DNA of 35,455 nucleotides. Origin: Bacteroidales bacterium. GTDB taxonomy: Bacteria > Bacteroidota > Bacteroidia > Bacteroidales > JAADGE01. This document shows positions 3,450 through 20,928 of this stretch, piece by piece; positions within the stretch are counted from its first letter, which is position 1; each line of letters opens with the position of its first letter. The notes under the pieces are model-generated. The model did no database searches, was not told the DNA's origin, and was given only the letters and a program-made list of their open reading frames with translations. The translations under genes and the position numbers were made by a program. The stretch spans positions 1 through 35,455 of the forward strand of contig JAOZQB010000001.1 in NCBI GenBank assembly GCA_029932445.1, written 5' to 3'.

Positions 3450-5270
3450 ATGCATATTACAACTGTTGACTGGCTGATTATTGCCGTATATTTCTTGATA
3501 AGTATCAGTATCGGATTGTTTATGTCGAAACGTGCAGGAAAAGGGATGAATGATTTTTTTCTCAGCGGAAGGAAACTGCCTTGGTATATTGCCGGAACGA
3601 GTATGGTTGCAACGACTTTTGCAGCGGATACACCTCTTGCCGTTACCGAATTGGTTGCTGAACACGGAATTGCCGGGAATTGGTTGTGGTGGAATATGCT
3701 TTTAGGCGGAATGCTCACGGTATTCTTTTTTGCAAAACTTTGGAGACGAGCGGGAATTATTACCGATGCCGAATTTGTCAGTATTCGATATTCCGGAGGG
3801 GCTGCCCGATTTTTAAGAGGTTTCAGAGCCGTTTATATTGGGATTTTTATGAATACAATTGTGATTGCATGGGTCAATCTTGCAATGGTAAAAATTTTGA
3901 CGGTTATGTTTCCCGATTTAATGATATTCGGTCATTCAAGTTTTAATTTTTTGGGAATTGAAATTAGTTCACAATTAATTGCCGTTGCCGGATTAATGTT
4001 GTTTACAACGTTTTATTCAGCTCTTTCAGGGCTTTGGGGGATTTCTTTAACAGATAGTTTTCAATTTATTATTGCAATGACGGGCAGTATTATTTTAGCT
4101 GTTTTTGCCGTAAGAAATATTGATGTCGGCGGCATACAGGGTTTAAAAGAAAAATTGCCCGAATGGAGTTTTGATTTTTTCCCTTCCGTCGGTGATGCAG
4201 CTAAAAATAGTAACGACACCGGAGCTTCGGGAATTTTAAAAATGACTGTTACGGCATTCATAGCTTATCTTGGTGTACAATGGTGGTCGAGTTGGTATCC
4301 CGGTGCCGAACCCGGCGGGGGAGGTTATATTGCACAACGTATGATGTCGGCAAAAAATGAGAAACATTCGGTGCTTGCAACACTTTGGTTTCAAGTTGCT
4401 CATTATGCTTTAAGACCTTGGCCGTGGATAATTGCTGCATTTGCGGCTTTAATTCTCTATCCGGATGTCAGCGACAAAGGAGCTTCGTATGTGATGCTGA
4501 TTCGTGATTTAATGCCTGCCGGTTTGCTTGGTTTATTATTAGCAGCTTTTTTGGCGGCATATATGTCAACCATTGCTTCACAAACGGTTTGGGGAACTTC
4601 ATATATTGTGAATGATCTTTATAAACCTTTTATTAATAAAAAAGCAGATGAAAAACAATATGTTAAAGTGTCAAGAATTACGACTTTCATATTAATGATT
4701 TTAGCATTATTTATTACAACACAATTTGACAAAATCAGTGATGCATGGAAATTTGTTTTGGCAATGAGTGCCGGTATAGGATTGGTTTTGCTTTTGAGAT
4801 GGTTTTGGTGGCGGATTAATGCCTGGTCGGAAATTTCGGCAATGATTGCACCTTATATAATATATCCGATTTTAAGATATGTATTTAAATTAGATGTTTT
4901 ATCGAAAGATTTTGAATTAAGCTTAATATTAATTGTGATATGGTCAACTGTCGTATGGGTTACTGTTACATTTTTGACAAAACCTGACAGTGATGAGAAA
5001 TTACAATCATTTTACCGAAAAATACATCCGGGGGGCAGAGGGTGGCGTAAAATATCCTCAGATATGCCTGATGTTAAAGGAGATACCGGTTACGGAAGAT
5101 TGTTCGTAAATTGGTTTGCCGGAAGTATTATGGTTATGTTTGCTTTATTCGGTATCGGGAAAATAATTTTTGCTGAATATTTAACCGGCTTTGTTTTTAT
5201 TGCTGTTTCAATCCTTCTCGGATTTGTGATTTCGTATAACTTATCCAAGAATATAAATGAAAATAAATAA
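3450..5270 (+). CDS. Sodium:solute symporter family (SSF) transporter
   Basis: 606 aa, polytopic. DFFLSGRKLPWYIAGTSMVATTFAADTPLAVTE and GGGGYIAQRMMSAKNEKHS resemble the conserved SSF N-terminal and central segments. About 13 or more hydrophobic spans by eye. Confidence 0.8.
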   Translation: MHITTVDWLIIAVYFLISISIGLFMSKRAGKGMNDFFLSGRKLPWYIAGTSMVATTFAADTPLAVTELVAEHGIAGNWLWWNMLLGGMLTVFFFAKLWRRAGIITDAEFVSIRYSGGAARFLRGFRAVYIGIFMNTIVIAWVNLAMVKILTVMFPDLMIFGHSSFNFLGIEISSQLIAVAGLMLFTTFYSALSGLWGISLTDSFQFIIAMTGSIILAVFAVRNIDVGGIQGLKEKLPEWSFDFFPSVGDAAKNSNDTGASGILKMTVTAFIAYLGVQWWSSWYPGAEPGGGGYIAQRMMSAKNEKHSVLATLWFQVAHYALRPWPWIIAAFAALILYPDVSDKGASYVMLIRDLMPAGLLGLLLAAFLAAYMSTIASQTVWGTSYIVNDLYKPFINKKADEKQYVKVSRITTFILMILALFITTQFDKISDAWKFVLAMSAGIGLVLLLRWFWWRINAWSEISAMIAPYIIYPILRYVFKLDVLSKDFELSLILIVIWSTVVWVTVTFLTKPDSDEKLQSFYRKIHPGGRGWRKISSDMPDVKGDTGYGRLFVNWFAGSIMVMFALFGIGKIIFAEYLTGFVFIAVSILLGFVISYNLSKNINENK

Positions 5271-5284
5271 TTCTTTTCGGAAAT

Positions 5285-6370
5285 TTGAATAAAGAAAAAA
5301 CAAACATATTGATTGCCCCTTTAAATTGGGGTTTGGGACATGCCGTCAGAGATATTCCCCTCATTTATGATTTGCTTAAGAATAAATTTGAAGTTATTAT
5401 AGGAGGTGAAGGGCAATCCGGCGAACTGTTGAAGAACGAATTTCCCGAGCTTCAATATATTGAAATACAGTCGTTTAAAATAAAATATCCGAAGAATCAA
5501 TTTTTTATTTTGAAACTATTATTCCAAATTCCGAAAATTTTCATCGGTATTATCGGGGAACACAGACATTTACAAAATATTATTGATAAATACGAAATTG
5601 ATATTATTATTTCCGATAACCGTTACGGGTTATATTCCGATAAAATACCGTCTGTTTTTATAACGCATCAAGTTTTTCCGGCTTTGCCGAAGTCATTAAA
5701 GATTTTCGAAAAAATAATTTATAAAAGTCATCGAAAACGAATTGATAAATTTGAGAAATGTTTAATTCCTGATTTTGAAGGCAAAATTAATCTTTCCGGT
5801 GATTTATCGCATAAATATAAGTTTTCCGAAAATTATCATTTCATCGGAATTTTATCTCAGTTTGAAAAAGATGATATTGAAACCGCTGATTATAAATATG
5901 ATATAGCAGTAATTATTTCCGGACCCGAGCCGCAAAGAAGCATTTTTGAAGAAAAAATTACGGAACAAATTTTACAATTCGGAAAAAAAGCAATTTTAAT
6001 TTCAGGATTACCCGAGACTTCTATCCGAAAACAAGTTGAAAATTTAACAATTGTGAATCATCTTTCAAGAGCAGAAATGCAAGATGTAATTGTAAATTCC
6101 GAAATTATAATAAGTCGTTCCGGTTATACAACAATAATGGATTTGGTTAAGCTTCAAAAAAAGGCCGTTCTGATACCCACTCCCGGACAAACGGAACAAG
6201 AGTATTTTTCTGATTATCTGAAAGATAAAACGATGTTTGTTTTCAGGAAACAAAATAATTTTGATCTGAATAATGCTGTAAGTGAATTAAAAACATTAAA
6301 TCCGGATTTTAAAAAAATCTCAAACTTAGATTGCAATAGTTTTATAAATATCATAAAATCATTGAAATAA
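5285..6370 (+). CDS. GT-B fold glycosyltransferase (MurG/GT28 C-terminal-domain-like)
   Basis: 361 aa with a TTG start. The N-terminal ILIAPLNWGLGHAVRDIPLI (G-x-G-H loop) and C-terminal IISRSGYTTIMDLVKLQKKAVLIPTPGQTEQEYFSDYL (donor-binding E-Q-E region) are typical of this class. The substrate is unknown. Confidence 0.55.
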   Translation: MNKEKTNILIAPLNWGLGHAVRDIPLIYDLLKNKFEVIIGGEGQSGELLKNEFPELQYIEIQSFKIKYPKNQFFILKLLFQIPKIFIGIIGEHRHLQNIIDKYEIDIIISDNRYGLYSDKIPSVFITHQVFPALPKSLKIFEKIIYKSHRKRIDKFEKCLIPDFEGKINLSGDLSHKYKFSENYHFIGILSQFEKDDIETADYKYDIAVIISGPEPQRSIFEEKITEQILQFGKKAILISGLPETSIRKQVENLTIVNHLSRAEMQDVIVNSEIIISRSGYTTIMDLVKLQKKAVLIPTPGQTEQEYFSDYLKDKTMFVFRKQNNFDLNNAVSELKTLNPDFKKISNLDCNSFINIIKSLK

Positions 6371-8350: not shown

Positions 8351-11221
8351 ATGGCAGAAGTTAAAAAAAGCAAAAGACTCGCACAAATTGCCGGAGAACT
8401 TAATGTGGGAATTCCGCATCTGATTGAACATCTTCAAAGCAAAGGTATTGAAGTAGATGCAAGACCTAATGCAAAAGTTTCTCCGGAAGGATATGAACTG
8501 CTTTTAGAAAAATTCAGCTCTGACAAGAAAGTTAAAGAAGAATCTGAAAAGATTATTCAACTTAAGCGTGAATCGGAAATTGACGAAATAAATGAAGTTC
8601 AAGAAAGCCCTGAAGAAACTGTTAAGGAAACTTTGAATGAGGAATCTGCCGAAATAGAAACTCGGAATAAAAGAGATCTTTCAGTTGATAAAACTAAGGA
8701 TATTGAAATCGATACAGAAGTACAAGTTGAAGATGTAAAAGCTGAATCGAAAAAGGCGGAAGAAGAAGTTGTTGAAAAAGAAGATTCTTTAAAAGAAGAA
8801 ATTAAAACTGAAACTAAAGAAAAAGAAGATCCTTCCAAACCCAAAATAGTCGGTAAAATTGATTTAAATTCAATTAATACAAAGACTAAACCTGATTCGA
8901 AATCAAGAAAAGAGAAAGAAGAAGAAAAGAAAAAGCGCAAAAAAGCTTCTGAAGAGGCCGTTTTAAAAGCTAAAGAGGAAAGAGAAAAAGAAGAACTGAG
9001 AAAAGCGACGGAAGCGAAACAAAAACTTGAAGAAGAAAAACAAGCCGAAATTGACAAGAAAAAGGAAGAAGCCGAGAAAAATTTTATTAAAACGGAATTT
9101 AAAGAACTTCAAAAACCAAAAATCATCGGTAAAATTGAAATAAAAGAAGAACCGAAACCTCAAAAAAATAAGAATAAACCCGGAGCAGATTCCGCTAATA
9201 AAAAACGAAAACGAAAACGAACCAGAATCAGAAAACCGGTTGCCACAAATAAAGTCGTTCCCGGAACAGTAAAAAAGAAAGCTCATCCGAATGCTAAAAA
9301 GTTTAAAAAACGACCTGTAGTAAATGAAGAAGATGTTCAAAAGCAAGTTCGTGAAACACTTGCAAAACTGACTAATAAGACTAAGAAAACTGCGGTTACT
9401 CACAGAAAACAGAAACGGGAAGAAAAACAACTGCAGATTCAAGAACAACTTGAACAACAGGAAAAAGAAAAATTAATTCTTAAAGTCACAGAATTTATTT
9501 CTGCAAATGAGCTTGCTAAGTTGATGAATATCAATGTAAATGAAGTTATTTCCACTAGTTTTGATTTGGGAAAGATGGTTACTATTAATTCTCGACTCGA
9601 TGCAGAATTAATTGCAATTATTGCTGAAGAATACGGCTTTGAGATTCAATTTATATCTGTTACCGAAACAGATATAGTGGAAGAAATTGTTGATAAGGAA
9701 GAAGATTTATTGTCTCGTTCGCCTATTGTTACCGTTATGGGACATGTTGATCACGGGAAAACATCTTTACTTGATTATATCAGAGATGCAAATGTTATAG
9801 CCGGTGAAGCCGGCGGTATAACACAACATATCGGAGCTTACAGTGTAGAGTTAAAAGATGAAAAAAGAGTCACTTTTTTAGATACTCCCGGGCATGAAGC
9901 TTTTACGGCAATGCGTGCCAGAGGTGCAAAAGTAACGGATATAGCAATTATCATTATTGCTGCTGATGATAATATTATGCCTCAAACCGAAGAGGCAATC
10001 AGTCATGCTAAAGCTGCTGAAGTTCCCATTATTTTTGCCATTAATAAAATTGATAAACCCGGAGCCGATCCCGAAAGAATTAAACAGGAATTAGCAGAAC
10101 GTAATATGCTTATTGAATCCTGGGGCGGAAAATATCAATCAGCTGATATTTCTGCTAAAAAAGGTGAAAATATTGAAGCTTTGATGGATGAAGTTGTTCT
10201 GGCAGCTGAGATGCTTGAATTGAAAGCTAATCCGAACAGACCGGCAAAAGGAACAATCATTGAAGCCGAATTGGATAAAGGAAGAGGATATTTATCAACT
10301 ATTTTGGTTTCAACCGGAACTCTTAACGTTGGTGATATTATTTTAGCAGGAGCTTATTCCGGTAAAGTAAAAGCCATGTATGACGAACGAAATAATCGTG
10401 TTAAAGAAGCCGGTCCTTCTACACCGGTACAAGTTTTAGGTTTGGACGGTGCACCTCAAGCCGGGGAGACTTTTTATGCCATGAAAAATGAAAAAGAAGC
10501 ACGAGAAATTGCAGCCAGAAATAAAAGAATTCGAAGAGAACAAACGCTCAGAACAAACAAACATATTACTCTTGATGAAATAGGAAGACGATTACAACTC
10601 GGAAACTTTCAAGAAATTAATCTTATTATTAAAGGCGATGTTATCGGTTCGGTTGAAGCTGTTGCGGATTCGCTTATTAAACTCGGAACGGATGAAATTC
10701 AAATAAACGTCATCCATCAAGGTGTCGGTCAAATTTCAGAAGCAGATGTTATGTTAGCTTCGGCTTCCGATGCAATTATTATCGGTTTCCAAGTGCGACC
10801 GGCTTTGGCTGCTAAAAAATTAGCTGAAAAAGAAGAAATAGATATTCGCTTATATTCTATTATATATCAAGCAATTGAAGAACTTAAATTGGCGATGGAA
10901 GGCATGCTTTCTCCCGAAGTTAAAGAAGAAATTACGGCTACGGTTGAAATTCGCGACATCTTTAAAATTACGAAAGTCGGTAAAGTTGCCGGATGTTTTG
11001 TCCTTGACGGAAAAATTGCTCGAGATGATAAAGTAAGATTGATTCGTGAAGGAATTGTAAAATATGACGGTGAACTCGGTTCATTGAAACGTTATAAAGA
11101 TGATGCAAAAGATGTTACGGCAGGAATGGAATGCGGATTAAATATTGAAAATTTCAATGATATTAAAGTAGGAGATATTGTTGAAGCATACCGAACAACA
11201 GAAACAGCAAGAAAACTTTAA
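8351..11221 (+). CDS. infB: Translation initiation factor IF-2
   Basis: 956 aa. Lys/Glu-rich low-complexity N-terminal region, then the GTPase core [24 protein letters not shown] and NKIDK. Confidence 0.97.
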
Positions 11222-11294: not shown

Positions 11295-12656
11295 ATGGCA
11301 AATGTACCCGGAATACCTAAAGGAACAAGAGATTTTTCACCCGAAATTTTAGCAAAAAGAAACTATATTTTTGATACGATTAAAGCTGTTTTTAAAAAAT
11401 TTGCTTATAAACAATTAGAAACTCCGGCAATGGAAAATTTATCGGTACTAACCGGGAAATATGGTGAAGAAGGTGATAAATTATTGTTTAAAATTCTTAA
11501 TTCGGGAAATTTTCTTAAAAAAGTGAGTGATTCGGAGTTGCATGAAAGAAATACGGCAAAAATGGCACACCTGGTTTCGGAAAAAGGTTTACGTTATGAT
11601 TTAACCGTTCCTTTTGCACGTTACGTTGTACAGCATAAAAATGAAATTACGTTTCCGTTTAAGCGCTTTCAAATTCAACCCGTATGGCGAGCTGACAGAC
11701 CGCAAAAAGGCAGATACAGAGAGTTTTATCAATGCGATGCCGATATTATCGGTAGTAATTCCCTAATCAATGAATTGGAAATTGTTCAAATGATTGATGA
11801 GGTTTTTACCAAATTGAATTTGAAGGTTACCATTAAAATTAACAATCGTAAATTGCTTGCAGGAATTGCCGAACGTATCGGACATCCCGACAAATTAATT
11901 AATTTGACTGTTGCAATTGACAAATTAGATAAAATCGGACATGAAAAAGTTTATGATGAACTCAGGCAATCCGGTTTTTCGGAAGACGGAATTAAATTGC
12001 TTGAACCGATTCTTAATTTCGGCGGAAGTTTTAATGACCAAATGCAGTGTATTGAAAAATTTCTCGGTGAAACCGACACGGGTGTTACGGGAATTGATGA
12101 AATTCAAAAGCTTTTTGCTTATATCGATTTATTTAAATTCAATAATAACATTCAATTAGATTTAACTTTGGCAAGAGGTCTGAATTATTACACGGGCGCC
12201 ATTTTTGAAGTTGTTTCGGATGAAGTACATATAGGAAGTATCTGCGGAGGAGGAAGATACGATGATCTAACAGGAGTTTTCGGTCTTGAGAATGTCTCCG
12301 GAGTCGGTATTTCTTTCGGAGCAGACAGAATTTATGATGTTTTGGAAAATTTGAATCGATTTCCGGAAGGCGTTAAAACAAATGTAAAATTAATGTTTGT
12401 AAATTTTGGAGCGAAAGAAGAAAAATATTGCTTACAAGTTTTGAAAAATTTAAGAGATTCCGGAATTTCTGCTGAAATTTATCCTGAAAGCAGTAAAATG
12501 AAAAAGCAAATGAAATATGCAAACAGCAACAATATTCCTTTTGTAGCAATAGCCGGTGAAGATGAAATTAAAAAAAATAAATTTACACTAAAAAACATGC
12601 AAACCGGTGATCAACAATTAGTAACAGAAGAAGAAATGATTATTCTTTTGTCTTAA
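11295..12656 (+). CDS. hisS: Histidine--tRNA ligase
   Basis: 453 aa. Class-II motifs [43 protein letters not shown] and GGGRYDDL...[11 protein letters not shown]. Confidence 0.95.
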
Positions 12657-14511: not shown

Positions 14512-15180
14512 ATGCAGGCAAAAGAATTAATATCAGATATATTCCCGGCTGTTAACATCAATGATAAAGGTGAAAAAGCCCTTGTGAGAATGGATTTTTT
14601 TAAAATCTCTCATATTCCCTTAACGGATTCGGACGGAAATTATTTCGGATTGATATCCGAAAATGAAATTTATGATTTTGATTTGATTGAAAAACCGTTT
14701 TCGACCTATAAAAATGTCCTTGCCCGGCCTTTTGTTTTGTGTAAAGAACATATATATTCGGTAATTAATCTTTTTACTAAATTAAATATTTCTGTTGTTC
14801 CCGTTTTGAATGACAGAGAAAAATATATCGGTGCAATTTGTTTTCATGATTTAGTAAAATATTTCGGAAGATTAACGGCTTCGGAAAATCCCGGAACTAT
14901 TTTTATATTAGAATTGGATTCTCATAATTATTCGCTTTCGCAAATTGCACAAATCATTGAAAGTAACGGAGCAAAAGTGTTGAGTTTGTATGCAAATTCG
15001 GTTAAAGATTCTACACAATTAGAAATAACCGTAAAATTAAATGTAACAGATTTTACAGCCGTAAAAAAAACCTTTGAACGTTATGATTATAAAATTAAAG
15101 CAGCATATAATGAGGATGATAAAATAAATGAACTTCTCGAAGAACGTTATAACGAGTTTATGAATTATTTGAATATTTGA
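14512..15180 (+). CDS. CBS-domain pair protein with C-terminal ACT-like region
   Basis: 222 aa. Two CBS-like beta-alpha-beta-beta-alpha units (HIPLTDSDGNYFGLISENEI; VVPVLNDREKYIGAICFHDLVK). Confidence 0.55.
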   Translation: MQAKELISDIFPAVNINDKGEKALVRMDFFKISHIPLTDSDGNYFGLISENEIYDFDLIEKPFSTYKNVLARPFVLCKEHIYSVINLFTKLNISVVPVLNDREKYIGAICFHDLVKYFGRLTASENPGTIFILELDSHNYSLSQIAQIIESNGAKVLSLYANSVKDSTQLEITVKLNVTDFTAVKKTFERYDYKIKAAYNEDDKINELLEERYNEFMNYLNI

Positions 15181-15239: not shown

Positions 15240-16871
15240 ATGGGGAATAAAATATCTTCCGTAAATATAAACTTGTTAATTGCTCTGTTCGGAGCACTGG
15301 TTTTTATTCCGTTTCTCGGCAATGTGCATTTATTTGATTGGGATGAAATTAATTTTGCAGAATCGGCACGCGAAATGATTGTTACCGGCGATTATTTAAA
15401 TGTCAGAATTGATTTTAAATTGTTTTGGGAAAAACCGCCTCTTTTTATCTGGATGCAGGTTTTATCAATGAAAATTTTCGGTATTAACGAATTTGCCGCA
15501 CGTTTTCCGAATGCAATTGCAGGAATTACGACTTTGCTTGTTCTTTTTAATATCGGAAAAAAACATTTCAGCGAAAAATTCGGTTTGCTTTGGGTATTTG
15601 CTTATGCCGGTTCTGTTTTACCGCATTTTTATTTTAAATCGGGAATTATTGATCCGTGGTTTAATTTATTTATATTCTTCGGTATCTATTTCTTTATCAG
15701 ATATTTATCAGAAGATAAAAATCGAATAAGATTTATTATTTTTTCTGCTGCTGCAATCGGACTCGGAACTTTAACCAAAGGTCCCGTAGCTTTATTATTG
15801 TTTTTATTGACGGGTTTTGTGTATTTGCTTTTACATAAATTTAAAATGCGTATTACCTTTAAAGATATTCTCATATATGTTGCGATTTTTTCTTTTGTCG
15901 GCGGATTTTGGTTTTTTCTTCAAATTATGAACGGTAATTTTACGATTATTCAAGATTTTATTAAATATCAGATTGAACTTTTCGGAAGCAATGTTGCCGG
16001 GCATCAGGAACCGTTTTATTATCATTTTATTGTGTTGTTTTTCGGGGTTTTTCCGGCTTCAATTTTTGCTCTTAAATCGTTCAGAAAGGATAAATCGGGA
16101 AACGAAGAACAAAATCTGTTTAAAGAATGGATGATGATTCTATTTTGGGTAGTATTGATTTTATTCAGCATCGTTAAAACCAAAATTGTTCATTATTCTT
16201 CAATGGCCTATTTTCCGCTCACTTTTTTGGCTGCTTACAGCATTTATAAAACCGAAGAAGGCGTTTTTAAAAAATCAAAAGTTATTTCCGGGATACTAAT
16301 TTTTCTTGCATTTTTTTATGCTTTTGCAATTTTTGCTTTTCAATACATAGGCAAAAATCACGAAAAAATTATTCATTCCGGTATTATTAAAGATGCTTTT
16401 GCAAATGCCAATTTGCAAGCGATAACTTCTTTTACCGGCTTTGAATTTTTGCTTGGTGTGTTTCTGCTTGCGGGAGTTATTTTTGCTTTGTATAATACAA
16501 AAAAGCTTTATTTAAAAGCGATGTTCGGTTTGTTTGCCGTCACTATTGTTTTTACCAATCTCACACAAAGCATAATTGTTCCGCAAATTGAAAAAATATC
16601 ACAAAAAGCAGCCGTTGATTTCTTTACTGAACATCAAAATGAAGACGCTTATTTCAGAACATACGGAATGAAAAGTTATGCTCCGTATTTTTATGCAAAA
16701 AAAATGCAAACTGACAATATTTCTCAAACACAAATGCTGACCGGTAAAATCTCAAAACCGGTATATGTAATGTGTCGCATTACAAAAAAAGATGAATTTG
16801 AAAGAAAATACCCTGATTTTAACGTTGTGCAAAATAAAAACGGGTATGTTTTTCTTGAAAGAAAACCCTAA
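15240..16871 (+). CDS. Glycosyltransferase family 39 (ArnT/PMT-like) integral membrane protein
   Basis: 543 aa, polytopic. The first periplasmic loop LFDWDEINFAESAREM (DE motif) and KPPLFIWMQ are characteristic of GT-C/GT39 enzymes. Confidence 0.7.
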   Translation: MGNKISSVNINLLIALFGALVFIPFLGNVHLFDWDEINFAESAREMIVTGDYLNVRIDFKLFWEKPPLFIWMQVLSMKIFGINEFAARFPNAIAGITTLLVLFNIGKKHFSEKFGLLWVFAYAGSVLPHFYFKSGIIDPWFNLFIFFGIYFFIRYLSEDKNRIRFIIFSAAAIGLGTLTKGPVALLLFLLTGFVYLLLHKFKMRITFKDILIYVAIFSFVGGFWFFLQIMNGNFTIIQDFIKYQIELFGSNVAGHQEPFYYHFIVLFFGVFPASIFALKSFRKDKSGNEEQNLFKEWMMILFWVVLILFSIVKTKIVHYSSMAYFPLTFLAAYSIYKTEEGVFKKSKVISGILIFLAFFYAFAIFAFQYIGKNHEKIIHSGIIKDAFANANLQAITSFTGFEFLLGVFLLAGVIFALYNTKKLYLKAMFGLFAVTIVFTNLTQSIIVPQIEKISQKAAVDFFTEHQNEDAYFRTYGMKSYAPYFYAKKMQTDNISQTQMLTGKISKPVYVMCRITKKDEFERKYPDFNVVQNKNGYVFLERKP

Positions 16872-16878
16872 CTGATAA

Positions 16879-16907
16879 CTTTTCCAAAGTTCGAAACTTT
16901 GGAAAAG
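16879..16907 (+). repeat. REP-like hairpin, left copy
   Basis: CTTTTCCAAAGTT-cga-AACTTTGGAAAAG, a perfect 13-bp stem. It begins 8 nt after the GT39 stop. Confidence 0.85.
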
Positions 16908-16951
16908 TGAAAATAATAAACTGAGATTTAAAAGATTAAACTAAAAATATA

Positions 16952-17569
16952 ATGCAAGATTATACCCCTGCTTTTGAATCTGAAAATTTTTACCACATAT
17001 ACAGTCATGCTGTAGGGAGTGATAATTTATTTAAAGAAGATTCAAATTATGATTTTTTTCTTTCGCGTTTTTCAAAATATATTAATCCGGTTGCAGATAC
17101 TTTCGCTTATTGTTTAATGCCCAATCATTTTCATTTTTTGATACGGTTGAAAAATGAAAATGAAATTAATACCGTAATGCAAACTGTAAAAAGTTCGGGA
17201 AAGAAATTAAATCATGAAAAATTTGTCAGTAAACAATTTTCAAATTTATTCAGTTCATATACACAGTCATATAATAAACAACAGAACAGGAAGGGAAATC
17301 TTTTTCAAAAACCGTTTAAACGAAAACATATCAGAAAAGATAAATATATTTTGAATTTAATAAGGTATATTCACAATAATCCTGTGCATCATAAATTTAC
17401 TGATAATTTCAGAAGTTGGAAATACAGTTCTTATACAGGTCTTTTGTCGGACAAAAAAACAAATTTAATGCGAAACGAAGTAATAGAAATATTTGACGGT
17501 AAAGATAATTTTATTTATTTTCATAATGACATATCTGAAGACGAACAGTTTGAATATTTTGAAGATTAG
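16952..17569 (+). CDS. HUH-family Y1 (IS200/IS605 TnpA- or RAYT-like) transposase
   Basis: 205 aa. HUH motif in CLMPNHFHFLIRL and the catalytic-Tyr helix LIRYIHNNPVHHKF, both typical of the Y1_Tnp (COG1943) family. Confidence 0.8.
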   Translation: MQDYTPAFESENFYHIYSHAVGSDNLFKEDSNYDFFLSRFSKYINPVADTFAYCLMPNHFHFLIRLKNENEINTVMQTVKSSGKKLNHEKFVSKQFSNLFSSYTQSYNKQQNRKGNLFQKPFKRKHIRKDKYILNLIRYIHNNPVHHKFTDNFRSWKYSSYTGLLSDKKTNLMRNEVIEIFDGKDNFIYFHNDISEDEQFEYFED

Positions 17570-17583
17570 AAAAATGAAAAAAA

Positions 17584-17612
17584 CTTTTCTAAAGTTCAAA
17601 ACTTTGGAAAAG
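17584..17612 (+). repeat. REP-like hairpin, right copy
   Basis: CTTTTCTAAAGTT-caa-AACTTTGGAAAAG, a 13-bp stem with one mismatch. Same orientation and the same TGAA tail as the left copy. Confidence 0.85.
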
Positions 17613-17673
17613 TGAATGATAACAAATAAAAACGCTTATGTGTTTTTTGTGAAGGAATCGTAAAAAAGAGGAA

Positions 17674-17704: not shown

Positions 17705-17836
17705 TGACAGAAGAAACCGTAAAATTTCAGCGTTTATTTTTTGAAAGCGGATTAAAAATTTATACATTAGATGCCTGAAATAACATGTTGCTAAAATCGA
17801 AATAAACGTAATAGATTAGTAACCGGTGTTTATACA

Positions 17837-17855
17837 AATGTTGTAAGGCATTGCA
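17837..17855 (+). repeat. attC-like 3' (R') end, site 0: AATGTTGTAAGGCATTGCA
   Basis: 16/19 identical to 18834-18852. Its core GTTGTAA is the exact complement of TTACAAC at 18691-18697. Confidence 0.5.
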
Positions 17856-17899
17856 CCAATAAAAATTTTAGAACACTGAAAACTGATAACAGAAATCTT

Positions 17900-18292
17900 A
17901 TGAAATCTATATTATTTGTAATGTTAATTATCTCAGGTTGCTTTGGACAAAAGACTAATCCTGTGAGCAATAAAAAGGAATTATTTAATGAGTCTGTTAG
18001 TAGTATTGAATTATTTAAAAAACCTAATGGGAATTCTCTTTATTTACCTAAAATAGATTACGAAAATTTCATAAAACATTGGAATAAATCGGAAACAGCT
18101 GGTATTATTGAGTTTAAACCTGATTACTTTTTGAATGTCAATCTTACTGATGGGTCGGTCAGAAAATTTAGGGCTAACTCAAAGTATATTAAAGAAGGAA
18201 GTGATTGGTGTTACACTTTGGAAGACAGTACATTTTTCGAAGATATATTCACAATGAAAATCAAAGAAAACAGTACAAAAACACAACAATGA
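17900..18292 (+). CDS. Small lipoprotein of unknown function
   Basis: 130 aa. Signal peptide with lipobox MKSILFVMLIISGC. No recognisable domain. Confidence 0.65.
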   Translation: MKSILFVMLIISGCFGQKTNPVSNKKELFNESVSSIELFKKPNGNSLYLPKIDYENFIKHWNKSETAGIIEFKPDYFLNVNLTDGSVRKFRANSKYIKEGSDWCYTLEDSTFFEDIFTMKIKENSTKTQQ

Positions 18293-18684
18293 ATATAAAA
18301 ACCTTTATACTAATTGGATTTGTATTTACCTTAGTTTCTTGTGATCGTATGCAAACTATTGAATTTGAAAACAAATGTGTTTCAGAATCAACAGTTAAAT
18401 TCTATTTCAAAGGAAGTTATTACTATAAATTTGATGGTTTTTTAACTAAAGATTCTCTAATACTCAATCTAAAACCGAACGAAAAAAAGATATTTGATTT
18501 TGGAATAGGAACTTGGGAAATTCACAATTCTCTTGATTCATTAGTCTCAAGAATTGAAAAAATAGAAATTGAGACAAATCAATCTACAGCAATTTTTAAT
18601 GGGAAATTACAAGTAGAATCATTCTTTAAAGATCGATTGATTGATGATATATATAAAGCAAGAATAATAATAGAAATTAAATAG
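18289..18684 (+). CDS. Small lipoprotein of unknown function
   Basis: 131 aa from the ATG at 18289 (MNIKTFILIGFVFTLVSC lipobox). ATGA start/stop overlap with the upstream gene. The track ORF start at 18205 is rejected as an out-of-context extension. Confidence 0.65.
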   Translation: MNIKTFILIGFVFTLVSCDRMQTIEFENKCVSESTVKFYFKGSYYYKFDGFLTKDSLILNLKPNEKKIFDFGIGTWEIHNSLDSLVSRIEKIEIETNQSTAIFNGKLQVESFFKDRLIDDIYKARIIIEIK

Positions 18685-18852
18685 AACGCATTACAACACC
18701 AGCTATATTTCATAGTGCGTTTGGTGGTAAATTGGTAGTTCCGTTGGTTTCTGATAGTACGCAAAATCTTTGATTTTGCTTGTGGTAAACTGAAATTTTT
18801 GTACTTTTAATTTGCACTACGAAAACATAGCAGAACGTTGTGTGGCATTGCA
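18685..18852 (+). repeat. attC-like imperfect hairpin, site 1 (R''-L'' ... L'-R')
   Basis: R'' TTACAAC (18691-97), 4-nt spacer, L'' GCTAT (18702-06), then TTTCATAGTGC (18708-18). These pair with GCACTACGAAA (18814-24), L' ATAGC (18827-31), a 5-nt spacer and R' GTTGTGT (18837-43). Bulged bases occur between the helices. Confidence 0.5.
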
Positions 18853-19972
18853 AAGAGAGAAAATTTAACCATTATTTAGTAAATAGTATATGAGAAAAGT
18901 ATTACTTTTAATTCTAATGTTATTGAGTTTGACAGGATTCTCACAAAACCTCAAAACAAAATTACAAGGAGAATGGGTTTGCACAGGAATATTTAATTCT
19001 TCAGGTGACTCAACATCCGGAAAATTTGGAGCTTCAAACGAATATTTGAGATTTAAATTTAGAAAGGGCTATTTATCAATGAACGAATCTCCTGTTGATA
19101 ATAGTCTTGAGTTTCCAATTAAGTACAGAATGGATTATTTTGAATTTGTTTTTAACTCAAATTCAGCACTCCAACCAGGATTACAGCTCTATGATAAACA
19201 ACAAGTCCCTAATATTGATTTTCAAATTCCTGAGAGCAAATACTTTGTAAATTTTGTAAATAATGACCAAATAGTTTTATCAGCATTAAGTTCAAACAAA
19301 GACACAATATTTTACAATTTTACAAAACAAAAATATTTTGTTGATAATCAACATAATGAAAAGTTGATAACAGATATTGGTTATGTGATAATTAAACATT
19401 TAAAACTTTCTAAAGATTCAAAAGGTGCAAATCGAGTTGCTGAGTATTTTGTAACAAATAATATTGCAAATTTGTATCCTGCACCTTTATTTAAGGATTA
19501 TTCAGAAACAACATTTGGTCATTACGTATCAATCAATTTTAAATTTCCAGATTCATATGAGTTAGGAACGGTTTCAGAAGAGCTGATAATTGAATTTGAT
19601 GTAAAAAAAAAAGATGTTAGCAATATCAGAGTTATAAAAGGATTAAGTGATTATTTTGATAGTTCTATTGTGAAAATAATTGAAAAAACGAAAAAGAAAT
19701 GGATACCGGTAAAGATTAATGACAATTTTATAAATACAAGACTAAGAGTTCATTTTATTTTTTACCTTGATGTTGTTGAACTTAATCTGAAATTTTCAAA
19801 GTAGCCAAATAAACGCCACACAACAAACAAATAAACAACATGCGGTTCAGCAGTAATCCGCAAGGACAAAGAGGATTTGCATGGTCGCAAAAATTTTAAA
19901 TTTATAAATAACTAATAAGGCAAAATTTGTGCTGTGAGCAAACCGATAAATTATCGAAATTAACACCGCACG
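18838..19972 (+). mobile_element. Candidate integron-type gene cassette 2 (one secreted-protein gene plus attC-like site)
   Basis: Starts (G)TTGTGTGGCATT. Near its end it carries AACGCCACACAAC (19812-24), whose reverse complement GTTGTGTGGCGTT matches the start 12/13. The right boundary at GTTGCCT (19972) is less certain. Confidence 0.4.
18890..19804 (+). CDS. Secreted protein of unknown function
   Basis: 304 aa. Signal peptide MRKVLLLILMLLSLTGFSQN. No recognisable domain. Confidence 0.65.
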   Translation: MRKVLLLILMLLSLTGFSQNLKTKLQGEWVCTGIFNSSGDSTSGKFGASNEYLRFKFRKGYLSMNESPVDNSLEFPIKYRMDYFEFVFNSNSALQPGLQLYDKQQVPNIDFQIPESKYFVNFVNNDQIVLSALSSNKDTIFYNFTKQKYFVDNQHNEKLITDIGYVIIKHLKLSKDSKGANRVAEYFVTNNIANLYPAPLFKDYSETTFGHYVSINFKFPDSYELGTVSEELIIEFDVKKKDVSNIRVIKGLSDYFDSSIVKIIEKTKKKWIPVKINDNFINTRLRVHFIFYLDVVELNLKFSK

Positions 19973-19978
19973 TTGCCT
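19812..19978 (+). repeat. attC-like site 2 (non-canonical)
   Basis: R'' ACACAAC (19818-24), then A/C-rich ACAACAAACAAATAAACAACA, with TGCGGT (19841-46) pairing ACCGCA (19965-70) next to GTTGCCT (19972-78). Overall length of about 165 nt is similar to site 1. Confidence 0.35.
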
Positions 19979-20928
19979 ATTCAATCGTTAAAATTAAAAA
20001 TAAAAAAATCAAAACAAACTCACCAATTATAATTTCCGCAAGTCGTGCAACGGATATTCCGGCATATTATTCCGATTGGCTGATTAACCGATTGAAAGAG
20101 GGTTTTGTTATTCGTAAAAATCCTTTTAATCAAAAGCCCTATAAAATCAGTTTTGATAACACGCGATTAATTGTTTTTTGGACTAAAAATCCTGAACCTT
20201 TAATGCAAAAACTCGATTGGTTTGACGATAAATTCCCGAATTATTATTTTCAGTTTACTTTAAATGATTACAATCGGCATATTGAACCGAATATGCCTGT
20301 TTTGCAAAAACGCATCGAAACATTTATTAAACTTTCGGAACGCATCGGGAAAGAAAAAGTGATTTGGCGCTTTGATCCTTTGCTCCTGACGGAGAATATT
20401 TCTGTTGATGATTTATTGCGAAAAATTGAAAATGTTGCCGAACAAGTTTCCGCATATACCGAAAAAATGGTTTTCAGTTTTGCGGATATTCAAAAATATC
20501 GCAGTGTTCGTAATAATTTGAAAAGAGCCGGTATTTCTGCCCGTGAGTTTTCCGAAAAAGAGATGTTGCAAACGGCAAAAGGGATTTCTGAAATAATAAA
20601 AAGATTAGGAATAAAAGCAGCAACTTGTGCCGAGGAAATTGATTTGTCGGAATTCGGAATTCTGCATAATAAGTGCATTGATGATGAATTAATCTTAAAA
20701 CTTTTTTCGGAAGATGTGAAATTAATGAACTTTTTGGGCGTTAAGAAAAATGAAAAAGGTATTTTTGTAAAAGCAAAAAAGAATTTAAAAGATAAAGGAC
20801 AACGAAAATTATGCAAATGTATCTCAAGCAAAGATATCGGCGATTATAACACCTGTCCGGCAATGTGTGCTTATTGCTATGCCAATTCAAGCAAAAAATT
20901 GATTGCTCGGAATTTTAAGTCGCTTTAA
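19927..20928 (+). CDS. DUF1848-like protein with C-terminal Cys cluster
   Basis: IIISASRATDIPAYYSDWLINRL near the N-terminus and C-terminal CKCISSKDIGDYNTCPAMCAYCYAN match my memory of the DUF1848 family. The start is uncertain: only the TTG at 19927 is canonical, giving an extension of about 33 aa. Confidence 0.6.
   Translation: MCCEQTDKLSKLTPHVAYSIVKIKNKKIKTNSPIIISASRATDIPAYYSDWLINRLKEGFVIRKNPFNQKPYKISFDNTRLIVFWTKNPEPLMQKLDWFDDKFPNYYFQFTLNDYNRHIEPNMPVLQKRIETFIKLSERIGKEKVIWRFDPLLLTENISVDDLLRKIENVAEQVSAYTEKMVFSFADIQKYRSVRNNLKRAGISAREFSEKEMLQTAKGISEIIKRLGIKAATCAEEIDLSEFGILHNKCIDDELILKLFSEDVKLMNFLGVKKNEKGIFVKAKKNLKDKGQRKLCKCISSKDIGDYNTCPAMCAYCYANSSKKLIARNFKSL

Follow-up and report, generated by a model that had tools for sequence, protein, structure and literature searches.

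The stretch of DNA analyzed here, 35,455 nucleotides (nt) of contig JAOZQB010000001.1 (assembly GCA_029932445.1) and called the window throughout, is core chromosome of an uncultured member of the Bacteroidota with a GC content of ~32%. Its genes include those for SpoU, enoyl-ACP reductase, RimP, NusA, IF-2, HisS, PdxJ, a CBS protein and a GT39/PMT_2 glycosyltransferase, as well as a DUF1848 protein, a DUF6702 protein and a CHU_C type IX secretion protein. Between GT39 and DUF1848 lie three small open reading frames (ORFs) on the + strand, encoding proteins of 130, 131 and 304 amino acids (aa). An earlier note had read this interval as a short integron-style cassette array with no visible integrase, in which crossover occurs at G|TT and each cassette starts with bases complementary to its own inverse core. 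Comparison with loci fetched from metagenome contigs, plasmids and genomes (labeled L001-L122) supports that reading. The features of the array are as follows.

17753-17840, + strand: conserved 88-nt platform, a primary insertion site called attI-like for its position only, ending ...GGTGTTTATACAAATG; cassette 1 follows its last G
17841-18837, + strand: cassette 1, 997 nt, beginning TTGTAAGGCATT..., with two ORFs and attC-like site 1; its last base is G 18837
17900-18292, + strand: ORF c1a, 130 aa, with a lipoprotein-type signal (LIISGC), taken from the ORF list and called as a gene in L002 and L088
18289-18684, + strand: ORF c1b, 131 aa, also bearing a lipoprotein-type signal (LVSC) and overlapping, at its start, the stop codon of c1a (ATGA)
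18685-18849, + strand: attC-like site 1, with R'' at 18685-97 (AACGCATTACAAC), spacer 18698-701, L'' at 18702-19, a variable middle, L' at 18814-31, spacer 18832-36 and G|TT at 18837/38; R' (18837-49) is borrowed from cassette 2 in situ
18838-19987, + strand: cassette 2, 1150 nt, beginning TTGTGTGGCATT..., with one ORF and attC-like site 2; its last base is G 19987
18890-19804, + strand: ORF c2, 304 aa, a secreted protein whose family is tiny, with 12 clusters at 90% identity
19812-19987, + strand: attC-like site 2, with R'' at 19812-24 (AACGCCACACAAC), a spacer, L'' at 19830-46, a variable middle, L' at 19965-81, spacer 19982-86 (CAATC) and G|TT at 19987/88

The two cassettes are co-oriented. 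In each, the first bases are TT, preceded by a G, and the last part is an imperfect hairpin site (R''-L''...L'-R'). The four blocks from which the array had been recognized are all in place: the 5' blocks AATGTTGTAAGGCATTGCA (17837-55) and AACGTTGTGTGGCATTGCA (18834-52) are identical at 16 of 19 positions, and the 3' blocks are the two R'' segments, AACGCATTACAAC (18685-97) and AACGCCACACAAC (19812-24). The match counts given for them are likewise correct. The reverse complement of the first 3' block matches its own 5' block at 11/13 positions and the next at 9/13; that of the second matches its own at 12/13, that of cassette 1 at 10/13 and the site downstream at 5/13. Counted over positions 4-13, the own-end match of cassette 1 is 8/10. 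Genome-wide repetition of the blocks was not seen, as the 16-mer GTTGTNNGGCATTGCA occurs exactly at only two places in the window (17840 and 18837), and the platform is present in one copy per array and nowhere else in the fetched loci. The sites, put at about 160 nt in the earlier note, measure 153 nt (18685-18837) and 176 nt (19812-19987).

Unit boundaries and matched ends

What marks these units as mobile? The exact 304-aa product of c2 is encoded on seven metagenome contigs, in three different neighborhoods. In L003 and L004, 99.9% identity is confined to window positions 18831-19989, and a 382-aa AhpC-TSA gene stands upstream in place of cassette 1. At the left junction of cassette 2 (core ...ACG|TTGTGTGG), the window reads ...CATAGCAGAACG|TTGTGTGGCATT and L003 reads ...TCTATTCAGGACG|TTGTGTGGCATT. 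L003 and L006 part from the window after 19989, where they hold other cassettes (TTGTGCTTCATG... and TTGTGTGTCAT...); the right junction, ...CCTATTCAATCG|TT (...CAATCG|TT), is continued by AAAATTAAAA in the window (DUF1848), by GTGTGTCATAAA in L003 and by GTGCTTCATGCA in L006. Because the breakpoints are confined to G|TT and the neighbors vary, cassette 2 is demonstrably a discrete mobile module spanning 18838-19987. The left edge of cassette 1 coincides with the end of the platform homology in L098 and L099, and its right edge with the start of the match to L003 and L004. Altogether there are at least seven independent junction classes, all of them at G|TT. Two observations concern the contigs themselves. 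A leftward walk along the L003 array ended at a SpoIIE-like gene, whose best database match was 55%, and found no longer contig. At 1839-2002 of L001, c1b is interrupted by a foreign sequence of ~160 nt that closes with a run of N; this is either a scaffolding gap or an insertion.

The platform was traced by taking the 23 bases that precede the first junction and looking for exact matches in the metagenome collection; this returned one window-type contig together with L098 and L099. These two loci, from a related species, match the window solely over 17753-17842, at 85-88% identity, and the gene upstream in L098 is ABC_transp_aux (GldG-like), not GT39. After ...TTTATACAAATG|TT, L098 has two small ORFs and L099 one large gene for a secreted repeat protein; beyond these occupants, the two loci are identical in their hairpin site (~70 nt) and their right flank. 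The platform thus acts like a primary insertion site that can take different occupants, with no recombinase gene adjoining it. Two of the three breakpoints predicted earlier, 17840/41 and 18837/38, are therefore where relatives show presence, absence or replacement of genes at GTT cores (L003, L004, L006, L098 and L099). The third, 19972/73, was misplaced: the real junction is 19987/88, 15 nt downstream, and ACGTTGCC at 19970-77, with its GTTGCC at 19972, is part of the inner L' hairpin arm.

The second property of the units is that their ends match each other. There are 11 cassettes with both ends readable, from six arrays (window, L003, L090, L094, L098 and L099). When positions 4-13 of each 5' end are compared with the reverse complement of that cassette's own R'', the mean match is 8.45/10, as opposed to 3.26/10 for the R'' of other cassettes, and none of 100000 permutations reached the observed own-end sum. 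One of the 11 has GTA/TAC in place of GTT/AAC at both of its ends. The cassette-specific matching claimed for the two units of the window thus extends well beyond them. In 10 of the 11 cassettes, an A at position 11 of the 5' end faces a C in R'', so that the top strand has a C.A mismatch and the bottom strand a G.T wobble; in the window, these pairs are 17850/18687 and 18847/19814. The L arms have the same polarity. Transition mismatches there are G.T on the bottom strand in 22 cases and on the top strand in 5 (p = 0.0015), or 17 versus 5 when the window sites are left out. In site 1, which also has a one-base bulge, both L-arm mismatches are G.T on the bottom strand, as are 3/3 in site 2. 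This polarity fits a site that works as a folded bottom strand, as in integrons, to judge from the mismatch pattern. A possible alternative source of the asymmetry is a deamination bias acting on a bottom strand that is often single-stranded. As separate observations, the position-11 mismatch is found by eye in 3/5 recombinase-linked cassettes (from loci that include L110 and L120), and the Bacteroides ovatus rAID-1 array (recombinase-associated acquired interbacterial defense; L121) has a fixed mismatch at position 1 instead (R' = ATT, R'' = AAC).

The sites share an order rather than a sequence. R'' begins 1-8 nt past the stop codon and has AAC as its end. Next come a 2-5-nt spacer, an L'' arm (9-27 nt), a variable middle, the L' arm, a second spacer (4-7 nt) and G|TT. 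This is the architecture of attC (R''-spacer-L''-variable-L'-spacer-R'), and it fits both window sites and more than 12 related sites, which span 53 to ~230 nt. The most compact, at 53 nt, belongs to the AhpC-TSA cassette of L003 and reads ACACAAC-AAAA-GAATAAAAAGCA...CGCTTTCTATTC-AGGAC-GTTGTGT. The L stems are nearly perfect, with G.T wobbles, and clear extrahelical bases or bulges are not evident. What is conserved from site to site is the structure and a set of core positions (AAC, G|TT and the C/A at position 11), not the overall sequence. When the scanner used for these sites was applied to class 1 integrons from plasmids, its top candidates were the attCs of aadB, aadA2, blaVIM-2, aac(6')-29a/b and aacA4, and the true attC of arr-3 ranked second; the recovered sites have the same R''-spacer-L''...L'-spacer-R' layout as the window sites. 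By eye, the aadA2 and VIM-2 cassettes match their own ends at 11-12/13 positions. Extended end matching is therefore not peculiar to the window locus, and the integron rule that the earlier note had invoked, that a cassette's start is complementary to its own inverse core, is borne out in class 1 cassettes.

Related arrays and their recombinases

Homologues of c2 lead to co-oriented arrays of unrelated small genes separated by spacers of 110-700 nt. These arrays also hold a Gp49/HTH toxin-antitoxin (TA) pair, Fic and SnoaL-type genes. In one of them, in a Chitinophagaceae metagenome-assembled genome (MAG), the spacers are ~230 nt long and have a conserved core. One distant homologue lies in an ordinary SusC/D-type locus, and no homologue was found in the plasmid collection. 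In L104-L107, the TA pair stands by itself, flanked by core genes, with a plausible site at its 3' end only and no recombinase within 10 kb; these loci may be single TA-cassette insertions of the attG type.

A further toxin homologue leads to L110-L117, Flavobacterium-like contigs that encode a 350-aa tyrosine recombinase (PF13495 + PF00589). About 150 nt past the recombinase stop codon is ...GCGTATATTTATGAG|TT (...TATTTATGAG|TT), and contig identity ends there: four alternative first cassettes are found across samples, beginning GTTATGGGCTAG, GTTGGCAGACAG, GTTATCGGCAAG and GTTAGCCGTCAG. The first cassette of L110 holds five genes in 4 kb, and its R'' (ACCAGCCCATAAC) matches its own 5' end at 12/13 positions, the sole mismatch being the A/G at position 11. 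The grammar of the window sites is thus shared with arrays that lie directly 3' of an IntI-like recombinase. The enzyme's best solved relative is the Vibrio integron integrase VchIntIA (2A3V; E = 9e-38). Its identity to IntI1 is ~30% (32% in the alignment, 30% by tblastn) and to XerD 29%. Its scores fall just short of the cut-offs of NF040815, "site-specific tyrosine recombinase/integron integrase" (207 versus 220 bits), and of TIGR02249 (205 versus 265 bits, in two stretches). It has IntI-type motifs (LPES..., SPLD.L) and an N-terminal extension of ~70 aa, and it is without the IntI-specific insertion of ~45 aa. Wherever seen (L110-L117, L120, L122 and L121), the recombinase is co-directional with the cassettes.

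Homologues of this recombinase, 46-47% identical, are encoded on two Chryseobacterium plasmids that share a backbone and part from each other precisely at ...ACATATAAACAAG|TT (...AAACAAG|TT), after which their cassettes differ. One Chryseobacterium array includes an IS110 element and a group II intron; in L120 (plasmid NZ_CP041688 of Chryseobacterium sp. SNU WT5), the group II intron carries a reverse transcriptase. Group II introns are known from classical integron arrays too. L120 also has an ORF-less mini-cassette of ~200 nt that starts G|TTGGGAAAAATCGCCCTTTGGGACGATTTTTCCCAAC and recurs in the array (10149-10340, 12360-12437 and 14640-14850); its ends form a perfect 14-nt inverted repeat. 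L089 combines an 89%-identical c2 homologue with a segment homologous to the post-recombinase region of Chryseobacterium (E = 1e-7).

In Bacteroides ovatus (L121), a 47-48% identical recombinase heads 15 co-directional genes, including SMI1/KNR4, Imm26, PoNe/PoNi and Tdi1 immunity genes, an array that fits the published description of rAID-1. Its spacers of 57-60 nt read R''(..TAAC)-L''-loop-L'-AAACC-A|TTA, with cassette-specific end matches of 9-10 nt. They fold on the bottom strand into a conserved hairpin with compensatory changes in 9/18 pairs.

Other findings in the comparison set stand apart. Acinetobacter plasmids (H48-H70) have a widespread short tyrosine recombinase, named TnpF in one record, that shares 52-53% identity with the array-linked recombinase over its catalytic part (residues 123-350) and is closer to it than IntI1 is. 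In L092, a segment of ~170 nt (…TATTGTGACTGACGGAGCGATGC.GTGTTCGGAACGCAAAC…) is repeated in two unusually long spacers (~700 nt) of a cassette-like array (1-170 and 5170-5340). In L108 (7560-10700), cassette-like genes, two Gp49/HTH pairs among them, occupy the interval from the nos to the pst operon. L108 was not counted as a window-type system, as its GC-rich palindromic repeat (GGCGTAGTCTTCAGACTACGCC...) does not fit the AAC...G|TT grammar; it may hold a different repeat system.

Weighing the explanations

We consider it likely that 17753-19987 is a two-cassette array, without a recombinase of its own, belonging to a Bacteroidota integron-like gene-capture system of the rAID-1 type. The array has the composition used to recognize such loci (at least two co-oriented short genes with GC below their surroundings), with 28.1% and 28.6% GC compared with 32-34% in the flanking genes. 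We infer the connection to a rAID-type enzyme from shared site anatomy, not from physical linkage.

How would the system work? A cassette would be a promoterless ORF module with TT, directly behind a G, at its start and an attC-like hairpin at its end. A tyrosine recombinase would swap strands at G|TT, such that whole cassettes are excised or inserted. Strand exchange at this point means that the first 10-13 bases of each cassette complement its own R'', and in the excised circle the cassette's 5' end and its R'' would form the R stem of the site. The predicted circle junctions are ...CCTATTCAATCG|TTGTGTGGCATT for cassette 2 (...CAATCG|TTGTGTGG...) and ...CATAGCAGAACG|TTGTAAGGCATT for cassette 1. 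The folding strand would most likely be the bottom one. The 88-nt platform would be the primary insertion site, reading ...TTTATACAAATG|TTAAAATTAAAAAT when emptied, and may supply a promoter. A possible array promoter facing the cassettes, proposed with low confidence from sequence inspection, is TTTG-N19-TACATTAG at 17740-17770 on the + strand. It is close to the Bacteroidetes -33/-7 promoter consensus, and its TACATTAG part falls inside the conserved platform. The enzyme, which is not encoded within 17 kb on either side, would act in trans from elsewhere, or else the array would be a relic.

Several results weigh against assigning the array to this system. First, no recombinase is at hand. 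As the earlier note had it, there is no tyrosine recombinase in the 35 kb of the window, whether by Pfam or by tblastn with IntI1, XerD and three array-linked recombinases, and none on the contigs that carry the window's own cassettes; nor did tblastn find recombinase remnants in the window or the other orphan-array loci. Second, the platform has no similarity by nhmmer to the post-recombinase regions of L110 and L120. A likeness between them in a MAFFT alignment was suggestive, in an AT-rich region, and is not relied on. Third, the evidence for movement is uneven: exact copies of the cassette 1 proteins were seen only in the window context, and no empty site was recovered. Among the species of the genome collection, the closest is represented by the MAG "Bacteroidetes bacterium Dive96_bin10.164" (77% identity on GT39; 81-84% for HisS, PdxJ, CBS and neighboring proteins), and its synteny with the window stops directly after GT39, with cbb3 oxidase genes next. 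Fourth, the sites, at 153 and 176 nt, exceed both classical attCs and the 57-60 nt spacers of rAID-1. Fifth, c1a, c1b and c2 belong to no Pfam or NCBIfam family and have no recognizable immunity domains; by their sequences, the lipoprotein and secretion signals appear compatible with periplasmic immunity proteins, which is no proof.

Motif and fold statistics weigh on the same side. With up to 3 mismatches, GTTGTNNGGCATTGCA has 4 matches in the window where 2.26 are expected, and with up to 2 mismatches the 3' block has 23 where 23.35 are expected, both at chance level. The bottom-strand folding that had been proposed as a check gives unremarkable energies (z = -1.2 and -1.8 for the two sites as DNA); when both sites are folded as DNA and as RNA, each strand in turn, z ranges from -0.4 to -1.8. 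An energy scan of all AAC...GTT pairs ranks both sites high, along with false positives of equal energy. A rule-based scan (AAC...GTT, C at -11, A at +11, forced R pairing and an energy cut-off) returns exactly two sites on the + strand, but shuffled windows give a mean of 0.98 hits. After the position-11 filter, site 1 ranks first on the + strand in the constrained fold scan. An Rfam scan of the window gave no attC match, Rfam having no attC family; its sole match was a tRNA gene at 2302-2387. Taken alone, the structural evidence is weak and not significant. The observation is lifted above chance by the comparative data, namely the different neighbors of cassette 2 and the own-end matching in 11 cassettes.

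The best-surviving rival is that the array is a remnant of a classical integron, a set of clustered attC sites without an integron-integrase (CALIN) that arose by cassette insertion at a genomic GTT (attG), its cassettes being moved by a bona fide IntI, with the IntI-specific domain, that is encoded in another part of the genome or in the community. In its favor, the sites have the G|TT crossover, AAC/GTT cores and R/L box layout of attC. Single cassettes and small CALINs are commonly found at a distance from any integrase, IntI1 inserts cassettes at genomic GWT sites (bioRxiv 10.1101/2022.09.11.507474), and integrons have been reported in the Bacteroidota at phylum level (PMC8618304, PMC9668308). 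However, every recombinase found beside arrays of the same grammar is without the IntI insertion and co-directional, and IntegronFinder surveys give almost no integrons in Bacteroidetes proper (PMC9024848); a 2024 preprint likewise counts the Bacteroidota among clades earlier found without integrons. A platform common to two species is unexpected for random attG insertion, and the sites show the conserved position-11 mismatch instead of an extrahelical-base pattern. We regard this explanation as unlikely.

It is highly improbable that the sites are ordinary terminators or stem-loops and that the mosaics arose by homologous recombination between similar intergenic sequences. The sites do come after stop codons and fold no better than shuffled sequences, and about one structural hit per window is expected by chance. 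Yet those flanking cassette 2 are dissimilar save for a few bases around G|TT (53 nt in L003 versus 153 nt in the window) and thus offer no substrate for homologous recombination. Such recombination would also have to place all of the junction classes at G|TT, terminators leave the cassette-specific end complementarity unexplained, and the mismatch asymmetry favors the non-transcribed (bottom) strand. Weaker still is the idea that repetitive extragenic palindromic (REP)/bacterial interspersed mosaic element (BIME)-like or miniature inverted-repeat (MITE)-like palindromes, with genes caught between them, are serviced by the adjacent Y1 REP-associated tyrosine transposase (RAYT): a homologue does lie 270 nt upstream, flanked by two 31-nt palindromes, and HUH enzymes likewise act on single-stranded hairpins, but these palindromes (ACTTTTCCAAAGTTCGAAACTTTGGAAAAGT) are unrelated to the cassette sites, the cassette motifs have no further copies in the window, no Y1 gene is found on other arrays, the RAYT of L001 has an in-frame stop while its array is intact, and the units move whole, as gene plus site, with exact G|TT boundaries.

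The flanks of the array contain two further features.

16952-17569: RAYT homologue (Pfam Y1_Tnp; NCBIfam NF047646 at 74.9 bits, cut-off 80)
19988-20928, + strand: right flank, chromosomal DUF1848 gene, conserved domain from 20029 (Pfam 1.3e-95)

The RAYT gene, which the earlier note had overlooked, proved unrelated to the array. Its palindromes (16878-16908 and 17583-17613) are 31 nt long and 87% alike, and it lies between the true 3' end of GT39 (...QNKNGYVFLERKP and stop; last base 16871) and a relic of this end that has been displaced (TNKNAYVFFVKES and stop, 17622-17663). From this arrangement, the region 16832-17663 seems to be an insertion that arrived with a gene-end copy of its own. 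RAYT is thus a separate insertion, a pseudogene in L001 and absent from all other arrays. On the right, DUF1848 is not a cassette, as no hairpin site follows its stop codon and L003 and L006 hold other cassettes at that place. There is no ATG, GTG or TTG from the cassette junction (19987/88) to the conserved domain (20029), and the sole in-frame start is TTG 19927, within attC-like site 2. The N-terminus is either supplied by the cassette site, or begun at a non-canonical start, or its native start has been displaced. The exact DUF1848 protein has no database record.

Beyond the window, there may be a second, phylum-wide integron lineage in the Bacteroidota, with an IntI-like recombinase without the IntI-specific domain, transcription in the direction of the cassettes, wobble-marked sites, and platform-bearing orphan arrays served in trans. 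We put this forward tentatively, as a proposal somewhat more open to doubt than to belief. If it is true, fixed bottom-strand G.T wobbles (at position 11, or at position 1 in rAID-1) would replace extrahelical bases, and the rAID-1 arrays of gut Bacteroidales would be merely a branch loaded with immunity genes.

Comparison with known systems

Several known systems resemble the array in part. The pdif (XerC/D-dif) modules of Acinetobacter plasmids are also discrete gene modules bounded by tyrosine recombinase sites, with a Xer-type recombinase encoded elsewhere. In contrast to the window sites, pdif sites are 28-bp duplexes in alternating orientation and not long imperfect hairpins with cassette-specific arms. 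REP/RAYT systems also have hairpin-forming intergenic elements, and a RAYT homologue is adjacent here; they differ in that the sequences of the window are unrelated to theirs and form no repeat family, and what moves is a whole gene with its site. Insertion at attG (Loot et al., bioRxiv 10.1101/2022.09.11.507474) likewise produces integrase-free arrays of one or two cassettes in the core chromosome, whereas the insertion point in the window is a conserved 88-nt platform re-used across species, not an arbitrary GWT.

CALINs and single attC sites lacking an integron-integrase (SALINs; Cury et al. 2016, PMC4889954; IntegronFinder 2, PMC9024848) are closer. Like the window, they have promoterless ORFs, AAC...GTT imperfect hairpins, a G|TT crossover, cassette starts complementary to their own inverse cores, and arrays distant from an integrase; the related arrays also share TA cassettes and a group II intron with integrons. 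A complete classical integron has an adjacent, divergent IntI with an additional domain. The window has no recombinase, which is compatible with a CALIN; the linked recombinases of its relatives lack the IntI-specific insertion and are co-directional. The window sites differ from attC in having an R stem of 10-13 bp with a fixed C.A mismatch and no clear extrahelical bases, and in length (classical attCs are ~57-141 nt).

The closest system is rAID-1, and a system of this kind is therefore already known. It was called "reminiscent of integrons" on the strength of enriched intergenic motifs (bioRxiv 10.1101/471110), and the rAID-1 papers of 2019 and 2025 (bioRxiv 10.1101/471110, PMC12247911) describe only a predicted recombinase and conserved intergenic motifs, with no mechanism of acquisition. 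A search combining rAID terms, integron and attC surfaced only the 2019 rAID-1 preprint, which does not mention attC; a dissection of the sites is absent from the literature searched. What is new here is an orphan array with its own platform, the anatomy of the sites, the spread beyond gut Bacteroidales, and the fixed wobble positions. A rAID-type system is thereby given a crossover point, R and L arms, end pairing, a strand bias, and attI-like junctions with alternative occupants. The system reaches environmental Flavobacteriia and Chitinophagia-like genomes as well as plasmids, it carries cargo other than immunity genes, and its orphan arrays are found in core chromosome regions too. The mechanism is directly testable, and the system is a natural experiment on the need for the IntI-specific domain.

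The window differs from rAID-1 in several respects. It has no recombinase, its sites are 153-176 nt and not 57-60 nt, and it begins at a stand-alone conserved platform. Its core is G|TT with a conserved position-11 mismatch, where rAID-1 has A|TT and a position-1 mismatch. Its cargo is lipoproteins and a secreted protein without a recognizable immunity domain, where rAID-1 carries orphan immunity genes, and its host is an environmental member of the Bacteroidota with ~32% GC, not a gut Bacteroidales. On the other hand, both have co-oriented short, low-GC genes with structured spacers between them (Ross et al., bioRxiv 10.1101/471110; PMC12247911). Indeed, the B. ovatus example has the same R''-L''-L'-[A/G]|TT grammar and cassette-specific end matching as the window, and its recombinase is 47-48% identical to the one that lies beside window-type sites.

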